In this document: positions 12,090 through 15,894 of the stretch, in pieces
How the letters are laid out: each line of letters starts with the position of its first letter
How positions within the stretch are numbered: position 1 is the stretch's first letter
Source: a virus
Lineage: Duplodnaviria > Heunggongvirae > Uroviricota > Caudoviricetes
Virus record (IMG/VR): IMGVR_UViG_2913137851_000001
Length of the DNA stretch: 25,991 nucleotides
Direction: 5' to 3' (one strand)
Made by a program: the position numbers and the translations under genes
Notes under the pieces: generated by a model
What the model was told of the DNA's origin: nothing
Seen by the model: the letters and a program-made list of their open reading frames with translations, nothing else
Databases searched by the model: none

Positions 12090-12329
12090 ATGGGTAGCAT
12101 TAACCTGCGTATTGACGATGAACTTAAAGCGCGTTCTTACGCCGCGCTTGAAAAAATGGGTGTAACTCCTTCTGAAGCGCTTCGTCTCATGCTCGAGTAT
12201 ATCGCTGACAATGAACGCTTGCCGTTCAAACAGACACTCCTGAGTGATGAAGATGCTGAACTTGTGGAGATAGTGAAAGAACGGCTTCGTAATCCTAAGC
12301 CAGTACGTGTGACGCTGGATGAACTCTGA
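12090..12329 (+). CDS. relB: RelB antitoxin
   Basis: 79-aa product MGSINLRIDDELKARSYAALEKMGVTPSEALRLMLEYIADNERLPFKQTLLSDEDAELVEIVKERLRNPKPVRVTLDEL matches recalled RelB. AGAGGTG SD. Confidence 0.92.
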   Translation: MGSINLRIDDELKARSYAALEKMGVTPSEALRLMLEYIADNERLPFKQTLLSDEDAELVEIVKERLRNPKPVRVTLDEL

Positions 12330-12616
12330 TGGCGTATTTTCTGGATTTTGACGAGCGGGCACTAAAGGAATGGCGAAAGCTGGGCTCGACGGTACGTGAA
12401 CAGTTGAAAAAGAAGCTGGTTGAAGTACTTAAGTCACCCCGGATTGAAGCAAACAAGCTCCGTGGTATGCCTGATTGTTACAAGATTAAGCTCCGGTCTT
12501 CAGGCTATCGCCTTGTATACCAGGTTATAGACGAGAAAGTTGTCGTTTTCGTGATTTCTGTTGGGAAAAGAGAACGCTCGGAAGTATATAGCGAGGCGGT
12601 CAAACGCATTCTCTGA
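12329..12616 (+). CDS. relE: RelE mRNA-interferase toxin
   Basis: 95-aa product MAYFLDFDERALKEWRKLGSTVREQLKKKLVEVLKSPRIEANKLRGMPDCYKIKLRSSGYRLVYQVIDEKVVVFVISVGKRERSEVYSEAVKRIL matches recalled RelE. Start overlaps the relB stop (TGATG). Confidence 0.92.
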   Translation: MAYFLDFDERALKEWRKLGSTVREQLKKKLVEVLKSPRIEANKLRGMPDCYKIKLRSSGYRLVYQVIDEKVVVFVISVGKRERSEVYSEAVKRIL

Positions 12617-12687
12617 ACCAAAGCATGACATCTCTGTTTCGCACCGAAGGTGACACTTCTGCTTTGCGTTGACAGGAGAAGCAGGCT

Positions 12688-12843
12688 ATGAAGCAGCAAA
12701 AGGCGATGTTAATCGCCCTGATCGTCATCTGTTTAACCGTCATAGTGACGGCACTGGTAACGAGGAAAGACCTCTGCGAGGTACGAATCCGAACCGGCCA
12801 GACGGAGGTCGCTGTCTTCACAGCTTACGAACCTGAGGAGTAA
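12688..12843 (+). CDS. hokD: HokD (RelF) Hok-family small membrane toxin
   Basis: Below the ORF-track size cut-off; translated by hand as MKQQKAMLIALIVICLTVIVTALVTRKDLCEVRIRTGQTEVAVFTAYEPEE (51 aa). AGGAGA SD upstream. Confidence 0.85.
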   Translation: MKQQKAMLIALIVICLTVIVTALVTRKDLCEVRIRTGQTEVAVFTAYEPEE

Positions 12844-12911
12844 GAGACCCGGCGGGGGAGAAATCCCTCGCCACCTCTGATGTGGCAGGCATCCTCAACG
12901 CACCCGCACTT

Positions 12912-12933
12912 AACCCGCTTCGGCGGGTTTTTG
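12912..12933 (+). terminator. Rho-independent terminator after relBE-hokD
   Basis: ACCCGC-TTCG-GCGGGT hairpin followed by TTTTTGTTTTT. Confidence 0.7.
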
Positions 12934-13059
12934 TTTTTATTTTCAACGCGTTTGAAGTTCTGGACGGTGCCGGAATAGAATCAAAAATACTTAAGTAGCG
13001 CGCAGGGATAAGAGGGATGGTCCCTTAAAGGGGAGAGCTAATTATCCGGAAGGATTCTG

Positions 13060-13311
13060 ATGATGAACATCGAAGAACTGCGTAAAATTTTTTGTGAAGA
13101 TGGCCTCTATGCTGTGTGCGTTGAAAATGGAAATCTTGTTAGTCATTACCGCATTATGTGTTTGCGAAAGAATGGGGCTGCGTTAATTAATTTTGTGGAT
13201 GCTCGGGTCACGGACGGATTTATCTTGCGCGAAGGTGAGTTTGTCACTTCATTACAGGCATTGAAAGAGATCGGAATAAAAGCTGGCTTTTCTGCTTTTT
13301 CAGGAGAATAA
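13060..13311 (+). CDS. rem: Rem (small prophage protein)
   Basis: 83-aa ORF MMNIEELRKIFCEDGLYAVCVENGNLVSHYRIMCLRKNGAALINFVDARVTDGFILREGEFVTSLQALKEIGIKAGFSAFSGE, consistent with recalled Rem. GGAAGGA SD. Confidence 0.7.
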   Translation: MMNIEELRKIFCEDGLYAVCVENGNLVSHYRIMCLRKNGAALINFVDARVTDGFILREGEFVTSLQALKEIGIKAGFSAFSGE

Positions 13312-13377
13312 ACTCATCTACAATCTTGCGCGGGGCTGAACTCCCGCTGAGTAACACCGTGCCACCGGAGAAAACCG

Positions 13378-13656
13378 ATGGCACGCAACGCAAAATATTA
13401 CAATTCTGATAATTCGCCCGTTCTTGCCTGCACGCACGGGCGGTATTCTCACGCATTCAAGTCTGAATGGTTCCAGCACCCTCCATGCACTGCAGAACAG
13501 GCCGAATGGCTGATTCATTCTTACCGCAGGCGCGGGTTCGAGGTTAAGAAAGCTCTCAGTCTCGACTATCGGCACTGGATAATCTCTGTCAGGCTGCCTT
13601 ATTCCGAACGCCCACCACGTGCGTCCCGCACTTTCCAGCAACGGATCTGGAGGTAA
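13378..13656 (+). CDS. Hypothetical 92-aa protein, translationally coupled to ydfU
   Basis: GGAGA SD then ATG at 13378. Its last codons (..GGAGGTAA) supply the SD for the ydfU GTG start 1 nt downstream. Product contains Cys/His residues (CTHGRYSH ... HPPC). Confidence 0.55.
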   Translation: MARNAKYYNSDNSPVLACTHGRYSHAFKSEWFQHPPCTAEQAEWLIHSYRRRGFEVKKALSLDYRHWIISVRLPYSERPPRASRTFQQRIWR

Positions 13657-13657
13657 C

Positions 13658-14707
13658 GTGCGGGTATTACTTAGACCTGTTCTGGTGCCTGAGCTTGGGC
13701 TGGTGGTCCTTAAGCCGGGCCGTGAATCCATACAGATATTTCATAATCCTCGAGTGCTGGTGGAACCGGAACCAAAAAGCATGCGTAATCTGCCATCCGG
13801 AGTCGTTCCTGCCGTTCGCCAGCCGCTGGCGGAAGACAAAACATTGCTGCCGTTTTTTAGTAACGAACGGGTGATTCGTGCTGCTGGCGGCGTTGGCGCA
13901 TTGTCCGACTGGCTATTACGTCATGTTACATCCTGCCAGTGGCCTAATGGCGATTACCATCACACTGAAACAGTCATTCACCGTTATGGTACCGGCGCAA
14001 TGGTGTTGTGCTGGCACTGCGACAACCAACTGCGTGACCAGACATCGGAATCACTGGAGCTGCTTGCTCAACAAAATCTGACAGCATGGGTGATTGACGT
14101 CATCCGTCACGCAATAAGCGGTACGCAGGAGCGGGAATTATCTTTGGCTGAATTATCCTGGTGGGCGGTCTGCAATCAGGTGGTGGATGCACTACCTGAG
14201 GCTGTATCGCGTCGTTCGCTGGGATTACCAGCGGAAAAAATCTGCTCGGTGTACCGCGAAAGCGACATCGTACCGGGAGAGCAGACCGCCACCAGCATAT
14301 TGAAACAACGCACAAAAAATCTTGCACCGTTGCCTTACGCCCACCAGCAACAAAAATCACCACAGGAAAAGACGGTGGTAAGCATCACCGTTGATCCAGA
14401 GTCTCCGGAATCTTTCATGAAGCTGCCTAAACGTCGCCGCTGGGTTAAGGAGAAATACACACGTTGGGTTAAGACACAGCCGTGTGCTTGCTGCGGTATG
14501 CCAGCCGACGATCCGCATCATCTGATTGGTCACGGGCAGGGCGGAATGGGAACAAAAGCACATGATCTCTTTGTGTTGCCTTTGTGCAGAAAGCATCACA
14601 ACGAGCTGCATACGGATACAGTGGCATTTGAAGATAAGTATGGCTCCCAACTGGAGCTGATATTTCGTTTTATCGATCGCGCGCTGACAATTGGCGTACT
14701 GGCGTAA
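13658..14707 (+). CDS. ydfU: YdfU (DUF968-type protein with C-terminal Cys/His-rich, HNH-like motif)
   Basis: 349 aa if started at GTG 13658 (GGAGG SD), matching the recalled K-12 length. C-terminus CACCGMPADDPHHLIGHGQGG ... CRKHHNELH. Confidence 0.7.
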   Translation: MRVLLRPVLVPELGLVVLKPGRESIQIFHNPRVLVEPEPKSMRNLPSGVVPAVRQPLAEDKTLLPFFSNERVIRAAGGVGALSDWLLRHVTSCQWPNGDYHHTETVIHRYGTGAMVLCWHCDNQLRDQTSESLELLAQQNLTAWVIDVIRHAISGTQERELSLAELSWWAVCNQVVDALPEAVSRRSLGLPAEKICSVYRESDIVPGEQTATSILKQRTKNLAPLPYAHQQQKSPQEKTVVSITVDPESPESFMKLPKRRRWVKEKYTRWVKTQPCACCGMPADDPHHLIGHGQGGMGTKAHDLFVLPLCRKHHNELHTDTVAFEDKYGSQLELIFRFIDRALTIGVLA

Positions 14708-14720
14708 GTGGAGAACGAGC

Positions 14721-15473
14721 ATGAACCTTGAAGCCTTACCAAAATATTACTCCCCAAAATCTCCAAAATTGAGCGATGACGCTCCAGCGACAGGCACCGG
14801 TTGTTTAACAATTACGGATGTAATGGCAGCGCAGGGGATGGTGCAGTCGAAAGCACCACTTGGGTTGGCCTTATTTCTGGCAAAAGTTGGTGTTCAGGAC
14901 CCTCAGTTTGCGATTGAAGGCCTGCTAAATTACGCGATGGCACTGGATAACCCGACATTGAACAAATTGAGTGAAGAAATCCGGTTACAGATTATTCCTT
15001 ACCTCGTGAGTTTTGCCTTTGCTGATTACTCCAGGTCTGCGGCAAGTAAGGCTCGCTGTGAGCATTGTTCAGGTACGGGATTTTATAATGTATTGCGCGA
15101 AGTGGTGAAACACTACAGACGCGGGGAATCTGTAATCAAGGAAGAATGGGTGAAGGAACTATGTCAGCATTGCCATGGTAAGGGCGAAGCCAGCACAGCG
15201 TGCAGAGGGTGTAAGGGTAAAGGGATTGTTCTGGATGAAAAAAGAACCCGGTTTCATGGCGTACCGGTATATAAGATTTGTGGGCGTTGTAATGGAAACC
15301 GGTTTAGTCGTTTACCGACCACGCTGGCACGACGTCATGTCCAGAAGCTGGTACCAGACCTGACCGATTATCAGTGGTATAAGGGGTATGCGGACGTCAT
15401 TGGTAAACTGGTAACAAAGTGCTGGCAGGAAGAAGCATACGCGGAAGCGCAATTGAGGAAGGTGACGAGATAA
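14721..15473 (+). CDS. quuQ: Q-like late-gene antiterminator
   Basis: 250 aa from ATG 14721 (GGAGAA SD). Lies immediately upstream of a late-type promoter and short terminated leader. Contains four CxxCxGxG repeats. Confidence 0.7.
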   Translation: MNLEALPKYYSPKSPKLSDDAPATGTGCLTITDVMAAQGMVQSKAPLGLALFLAKVGVQDPQFAIEGLLNYAMALDNPTLNKLSEEIRLQIIPYLVSFAFADYSRSAASKARCEHCSGTGFYNVLREVVKHYRRGESVIKEEWVKELCQHCHGKGEASTACRGCKGKGIVLDEKRTRFHGVPVYKICGRCNGNRFSRLPTTLARRHVQKLVPDLTDYQWYKGYADVIGKLVTKCWQEEAYAEAQLRKVTR

Positions 15474-15504
15474 ATGATTTTTGCTGAAGATGGCGACATG
15501 ATGT

Positions 15505-15533
15505 TTGCATTTTTCAAAAAATATGGATAAAAT
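15505..15533 (+). promoter_or_regulatory. PR'-like late promoter (probable Q-utilisation region)
   Basis: TTGCAT-17 bp-TAAAAT just downstream of the Q gene, followed about 50 nt later by a strong terminator, the lambdoid PR'/tR' arrangement. Confidence 0.55.
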
Positions 15534-15578
15534 TTTTTCAACGATGGGCTTTGTATACCCGACGTTAAGAAAAAGTAG

Positions 15579-15609
15579 AAAACCCGCTGATGAGCGGGTT
15601 TTGTGCTTT
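15579..15609 (+). terminator. Rho-independent terminator (tR'-like)
   Basis: AAAACCCGC-TGATG-AGCGGGTTTT hairpin followed by a T-rich tract. Confidence 0.75.
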
Positions 15610-15894
15610 AAATGGGGCAATGGTAATGTTGAATCTCATCCCGGGACTCATGTCTGTTAACTTATTATTTAGCTGGTGACTTGGTTATTTGCCTGATGTT
15701 TAAAATGTTTTCTTCCAGTACAATGTCCCTAAACACAATGAGTCTGCTTATTATATTATTAGCAGAGCTATTACGGCCAAAGTACAGCATAAGCTTTTAA
15801 AGCCAATCAACCAGTCATCAAGACAGACGGGGTTATTCATAAAAACTCTCCATGTGTGATCCGATGGGGCCTGAAATTAAAGCTTTAATATAGC

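Follow-up and report, generated by a model that had tools for sequence, protein, structure and literature searches.

Gp16 of Staphylococcus phage NM1, a member of the HNHc_6 family, binds RecA, nicks and degrades plasmid DNA in a RecA-stimulated manner, and is needed for efficient phage DNA replication; the C181A mutation abolishes its cleavage activity (PMC12817073, 2026). Phage P1 encodes the RecA-dependent HNH endonuclease Ref (PF16786, PDB 3PLW), and a nuclease function has been predicted for YbcO of prophage DLP12 (PDB 3G27) (Kaur and Subramanian 2016). The Escherichia coli protein YdfU (NP_416078) was named as a His-Me finger protein in the survey of Jablonska et al. (2017), which assigned it to group 7 (DUF968 and DUF1364, including YbcO), noted RusA and Q as neighbours, and proposed a role in recombination and repair. 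The literature that we searched contained no experimental paper on YdfU and no biochemical data on YdfU or DUF968. Here, we analyzed ydfU, and in particular the Cys/His motif at the C-terminus of its product, in a stretch of viral DNA of 25,991 nucleotides (IMG/VR record IMGVR_UViG_2913137851_000001; hereafter, the window), which is DNA of the E. coli Qin prophage, and compared it with these proteins.

The ydfU gene (13658..14707; GTG start, TAA stop) encodes a 349-residue protein of the DUF968 family, as defined by the open reading frame (ORF) list, the sequence, the RefSeq annotation of identical DNA, and Pfam. The gene, the features mapped within it, and the two genes flanking it all lie on the plus strand. 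An initial annotation of this DNA had described an HNH-like Cys/His motif at the C-terminus of YdfU, and the peptide quoted there, CACCGMPADDPHHLIGHGQGG...HDLFVLPLCRKHHNELH, was found verbatim at residues 276-318 (14483..14611), within the interval 14480-14630 assigned to it. The motif has the pattern C276-x2-C279 ... H287-H288 ... C310-x2-H313-H314 ... H318 and was mapped from sequence coordinates, conservation, and residue equivalence to Gp16. The putative zinc ligands are C276 (14483-14485), C279 (14492-14494), C310 (14585-14587), and H313 (14594-14596), and the putative catalytic or metal-binding residues are H287-H288 (14516-14521), D303 (14564-14566), H314 (14597-14599), and H318 (14609-14611).

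A search of Pfam profiles had been suggested in the initial annotation as a check on the HNH-like character of this motif. The search matched residues 160-346 of YdfU to positions 1-171 of the 171-position DUF968 model (PF06147; E=2.6e-76; 255.9 bits against a cut-off of 27.8), and PHROG 96, 'HNH endonuclease', matched the protein from end to end (E=7e-171); a chance arrangement of the Cys and His residues is therefore excluded by a wide margin. Three further HNH PHROGs matched residues 256-326. Two HNH-type Pfam families also matched the Cys/His stretch, more weakly: HNHc_6 (PF16784; E=6.5e-6) at 26.3 bits, below its cut-off of 26.6, and RecA_dep_nuc (PF16786, the P1 Ref family; E=0.0037) at 17.8 bits, below its cut-off of 26.9. 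By these scores, YdfU is placed in the DUF968 family and in neither the HNHc_6 nor the RecA_dep_nuc family. When 1.84 billion cluster representatives were searched exhaustively, 2887 relatives were recovered at E <=1e-3, and a tblastn search with the last 95 residues matched 460 phage records, several of which are annotated 'HNH endonuclease' and which include those of Stx-converting phages. NCBIfam contained no model for YdfU, and in sequence searches of the PDB, neither YdfU alone nor its family profile retrieved anything relevant. A role in anti-phage defence was considered and rejected, as PADLOC gave no match. The DUF968 and PHROG 96 matches, together with the conserved His set described below, support the proposed likeness to HNH or zinc-finger nucleases, and the C-terminal motif is genuine and belongs to a strongly conserved domain of the HNH (His-Me finger) type. 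Its classification was already known, because DUF968 is a Pfam family, PHROGs and phage records carry the HNH label, and YdfU was named in the 2017 survey; the motif is thus a correct re-discovery of a catalogued domain.

The closest tested relative of YdfU is Gp16, in which the motif has nearly the same spacing: both proteins carry CxxC, nine residues to a His, and then CR(E/K)HHNE(Q/L)H. An hhalign comparison of the YdfU C-terminal domain with the Gp16 copy from phiNM2 covered 56 columns at 43% identity, with a probability of 90.7% and a pairwise E=1.3e-6; in it, Gp16 residues C145, C148, H157, C181, H184, H185, and H189 were aligned to C276, C279, H288, C310, H313, H314, and H318 of YdfU, respectively. 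Gp16 is also encoded, like YdfU, by an early phage gene located among replication and recombination genes; however, YdfU scores just below the cut-off of the HNHc_6 family (Gp16/phiETA Orf20 type) and lacks the NinB/Orf-like N-terminal domain. The hhalign match to P1 Ref was lower (probability 59.7%, E=8.8e-5). YdfU scores well below the cut-off of the Ref family and differs from it in the region past CxxHH, and Ref is a 186-residue protein with a disordered N-terminus that is encoded at another genome position in a very different phage. The match to YbcO was weak, but the alignment was sensible (GTGTKPPDL / CSACHDEI). YbcO is a 96-residue stand-alone domain with Asp at the position of H318, whereas YdfU has approximately 255 extra residues, which form an N-terminal region and linker with a Cys/His cluster of their own.

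The fold of YdfU was predicted with AlphaFold2 (AF2). The mean predicted local distance difference test score (pLDDT) was 51 with an alignment of 31 close relatives, which was unusable, and 72 with a 70-sequence alignment that included Vibrio and Yersinia homologues. From tblastn, AF2, BFVD, and substitution rates, we delimited a C-terminal His-Me finger (HNH) module at residues 255-349 (14420..14704), predicted to consist of a basic lead-in (KLPKRRRWVKEKYTRWVK), a zinc knuckle, a beta-beta-alpha core, and two C-terminal helices. The AF2 model contains strands at residues 287-290 and 303-307 and helices at 311-319, 321-328, and 331-345, and the loop at 291-302 has a pLDDT <50; this succession of a beta-hairpin and an alpha-helix is the beta-beta-alpha-metal topology. 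The first strand carries the conserved catalytic-type pair H287/H288, of which H288 aligns with Gp16 H157, Ref H113, and YbcO H32, and the following helix carries the conserved metal-type residues H314 and H318. A Foldseek search of the PDB gave no significant match; its weak matches, for which the aligned part of the model was not indicated, include Cap5, ScoMcrA, and an HNH nicking enzyme. The best match in a domain-specific search of BFVD was a 113-residue stand-alone DUF968 phage protein (35% identity, E=1e-4). Although the Foldseek evidence is supportive and not domain-specific, the predicted topology and the profile matches make it very likely that the C-terminus of YdfU adopts a His-Me finger nuclease fold. 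By analogy with its relatives, we consider it probable that the domain has this fold and also acts as an active DNA nuclease or nickase.

The ydfU gene is very common in E. coli. The 2.6 kb surrounding it are 100% identical to many E. coli chromosomes, and a 2.6-kb rem-ydfU-ydfT query was matched in 4923 of 5426 complete E. coli genomes, mostly more than once in each; in 1176 E. coli records, the best match had at least 99% identity to the query region. Qin is nonetheless a defective prophage, in which the upstream early region has been replaced or interrupted (insertion sequence elements, relBE-hokD, and rem) and the late region is truncated, and many truncated or chimeric YdfU fragments are present in databases. 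These facts raise the possibility that the Qin copy is a silent relic without a host function, its domain being a real nuclease only in live phages. We regard this as unlikely: identical or near-identical DNA is widespread in E. coli, the Qin copy is full length and retains all of the conserved residues, and its product matches that of Escherichia phage PhiR42_1 (host ECOR13) exactly over the last 95 residues. Moreover, such an explanation concerns the expression of ydfU and not the identity of the motif.

Conservation was examined in an alignment of 70 homologous sequences (28-100% identity), among them proteins of E. coli, Yersinia, and Vibrio. Thirteen residues of the C-terminal module were invariant (K258, C276, H287, H288, I290, G295, K300 (14555-14557), D303, F305, P308, H318, E325, and Q331), and H314 was conserved in >90% of the sequences. 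A second count drew on the top 150 cluster representatives of a 50%-identity library, in which 95 C-domain segments were matched; over their ungapped rows, H287 was present in 81/86, H288 in 81/87, D303 in 88/89, H314 in 77/85, and H318 in 76/83, and position 313 was His in 46 sequences and Cys in 21. Comparison of the last 100 codons with those of phage mEp460 gave a synonymous rate (dS) of 0.63 and a nonsynonymous rate (dN) of 0.04 (dN/dS 0.066). All four presumed ligands of the zinc-stabilised HNH subclass (CxxC ... CxxC/H) are found in YdfU, but they are not universal across the family: the main Vibrio clade has other residues at three of these positions (C279, C310, and H313), while its HH ... 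H-x3-H set is intact. The pattern indicates that the motif is two-layered, with an optional, putatively structural zinc site and an obligatory His set of the catalytic type. Between the strands we found no conserved Asn corresponding to the N of H-N-H; the invariant D303 at the start of strand 2 may take the role of the central Asn that braces the hairpin.

This pattern bears on whether the domain might be a non-catalytic zinc finger, that is, a DNA-binding or regulatory module of HNH descent that has lost the ability to cut. Several observations are compatible with such a module: the CxxC...CxxH pattern is typical of treble-clef zinc sites, the central Asn is not obvious in YdfU, ydfU adjoins Q, and one of the group-7 proteins carries the annotation of a phage transcriptional regulator (Jablonska et al. 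2017). In Gp16, the zinc-ligand mutants also had the strongest phenotype, and H157A had no effect on growth (PMC12817073). However, the loss of zinc ligands in Vibrio with retention of H287, H288, H314, and H318 implies that selection maintains the catalytic part and not merely a zinc finger, and inactivated HNH domains usually lose just those histidines. Since the two-layered conservation argues against a purely structural role, we consider a non-catalytic zinc finger quite unlikely.

The ydfU gene had been placed just before Q in the initial annotation, and the Q-type antiterminator gene ydfT (quuQ; 14721..15473), identified from Pfam Antiterm (E=3.6e-54) and annotation, indeed lies directly downstream, outside the domain, and starts 13 bases past the ydfU stop codon. 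Two intact phages, mEp460 and YeP3, have the gene order rusA, one or two genes, a ydfU-like gene, and Q, and the homologue in Vibrio phage pVa5 also closes the early-right operon. Because ydfU is the last delayed-early gene before Q and follows rusA in intact phages, its product may be a recombination or replication nuclease. Lambda Rap (NinG), a branch-specific endonuclease, shares with YdfU the His-Me finger superfamily, the late-nin niche near Q, and a proposed role in recombination; YdfU, however, has no match to the NinG Pfam family and belongs to His-Me group 7, whereas Rap belongs to group 24 (Jablonska et al. 2017). With rusA present alongside the ydfU-like gene, the protein occurs in addition to a Holliday-junction resolvase and not in place of one, and thus YdfU is not simply a junction resolvase. 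A packaging role like that of HK97 gp74, as an HNH endonuclease that assists terminase in cutting cos or concatemer DNA, is very improbable. Terminase-associated HNH genes adjoin terminase genes, whereas the Qin, mEp460, YeP3, and pVa5 copies belong to the early-right operon and precede Q or lysis genes. No terminase or portal gene adjoins ydfU: in Qin, Q and the lysis cassette separate it from nohA/terminase, which is approximately 7 kb downstream, and the layout is the same in mEp460 and YeP3. The best profile matches are also to Gp16, Ref, and YbcO and not to packaging HNHs.

Family membership, motif conservation, purifying selection, and synteny were computed here and the beta-beta-alpha topology was predicted by AF2; from this basis we infer catalysis, the roles of individual residues, the substrate, and a link to RecA. 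In the nuclease reading that we prefer, a structural zinc held by C276, C279, C310, and H313 would pin the hairpin to the helix and thereby stabilise the fold in the enterobacterial members. The general base would be H288, the neighbour of H287 on the first strand, and the divalent metal that catalyses cleavage of the DNA backbone would be bound by H314 and H318 on the helix, probably with the help of H287 and/or D303. The basic stretch preceding the zinc knuckle and the N-terminal region, with its own putative zinc site, may bind DNA or a partner. YdfU would thus be a metal-dependent nickase or endonuclease made in the delayed-early phase that supports phage recombination or replication, a role suggested by synteny and by analogy with Gp16 and Ref, and that is possibly stimulated by RecA. 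The stimulation by RecA is a tentative extrapolation from the same relatives, and we hold it to be somewhat doubtful. The Gp16 work supplies a testable model, namely, a RecA-stimulated nickase that aids phage replication and harms the host. If this is true for YdfU-type proteins, they could have a part in the biology of prophage induction and in DNA-damage or antibiotic synergy, as reported for P1 Ref; this would extend a known kind of system and would not constitute a new one.

The N-terminal region of YdfU contains a second Cys/His cluster at residues 93-123 (13934..14026; C93 ... H/C101 ... C118-W-H120-C/H121-D122-N123), which was recognised from conservation, a paired swap, and AF2. Among the 70 homologues, C93, Q94, C118, W119, and D122 were invariant, and H120 and N123 were conserved in >90%. 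Positions 101 and 121 are exchanged in a paired manner, H101 with C121 in E. coli and C101 with H121 in Vibrio, such that three Cys and one His are kept. AF2 predicted a hairpin (105-110 and 113-118) and a helix (119-125) with a pLDDT of 77-89, and the cluster is probably a structural zinc site without a conserved catalytic His; it matched no Pfam family. We also considered an internal duplication, in which CQWPNGDYHH...CWHCDNQL would be a second copy of the C-terminal motif, and rejected it: a Smith-Waterman comparison gave no significant score (it was reached by 62 of 500 shuffles), hhalign of the N-domain against the C-domain profile found nothing (probability 0.1-0.2%), and H108, the putative equivalent of the catalytic His, is not conserved.

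The N-terminal region and the HNH module are joined by a low-confidence linker at residues 195-263 (14240..14446), which has a short helix at 211-219 and a pLDDT <50 at 195-206 and 222-263 in the AF2 model and is probably flexible. In a blastn comparison with mEp460, DNA identity (89%) started abruptly at 14390, inside the linker, and continued through Q to 15602. At the protein level, YdfU and mEp460 gp49 were 57% identical overall and 93.5% identical over the last ~93 residues, the N-terminal part being far more diverged. As judged from these alignments, a mosaic recombination joint is located at the domain boundary at approximately 14390, and because the identity spans the linker through Q, the HNH module and Q appear to travel as one mosaic unit. 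A more elaborate version of the nickase reading would make YdfU an undescribed two-module enzyme, in which a non-catalytic, zinc-bound N-terminal hairpin-helix (C93, H/C101, C118, and C/H121, with the Cys-His swap between clades being compensated) recognises a DNA structure or host partner and is connected by the flexible linker to a RecA-stimulated, Ref/Gp16-like HNH nickase, whose nicks feed recombination-dependent replication just before the late switch by Q. The joint at the linker would then mean that lambdoid phages exchange the nuclease-plus-Q module separately from the targeting domain. Taken as a whole, we consider this two-module scheme rather unlikely.

In the database proteins P0287 and P0346, the DUF968 C-terminal core was also seen behind a LexA-type DNA-binding domain (240 residues) and behind HTH_36 with Phg_2220_C (282 residues); these are single representatives and were not relied on. 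Other database proteins (P0245, P0265, P0292, P0307, P0309, and P0374) carry the N-terminal 100-300 residues of YdfU fused to tail-tip J, tail-fibre, capsid, or portal domains, and these fusions were rejected as a clue to function. Their most plausible origin is deletion within decayed prophages or chimeric assembly, and they could mislead arguments from domain fusion.

According to the annotation of identical DNA, the gene order in Qin is relB, relE, hokD, rem, a hypothetical gene, ydfU, ydfT, cspF, cspB, lysis genes, and nohA. ydfU is enclosed by an ORF at 13619-14707, and its annotated start is the GTG at 13658. The hypothetical gene is a 92-residue ORF in the ORF list (13378-13656; RefSeq 'hypothetical protein'). 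Direct reading of the sequence at 13649..13660 (plus strand) showed that the TAA of this ORF (13654-13656) lies between the Shine-Dalgarno sequence GGAGG (13649-13653) and the GTG of ydfU (13658-13660), which suggests that the two genes are translationally coupled. We considered whether the 92-residue ORF is a remnant of the KilA-N gene that precedes the ydfU-like gene in mEp460 and rejected this, as there was no similarity. Neither this ORF nor rem matched a Pfam family, nor did the ORFs overlapping the ydfU interval on either strand, and Rfam gave no match over 12800-15800; no feature competing with ydfU was thus identified. In ydfT/quuQ, residues 148-193 matched the DnaJ-type CXXCXGXG zinc-finger model (35.4 bits against a cut-off of 32.7) besides the Antiterm family. 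Directly upstream of rem and ydfU, the toxin genes relE and hokD are located at 12329-12843, with relB upstream according to the annotation; relE and hokD hold the place taken by replication and nin genes in intact relatives, consistent with the known heavy rearrangement of Qin.
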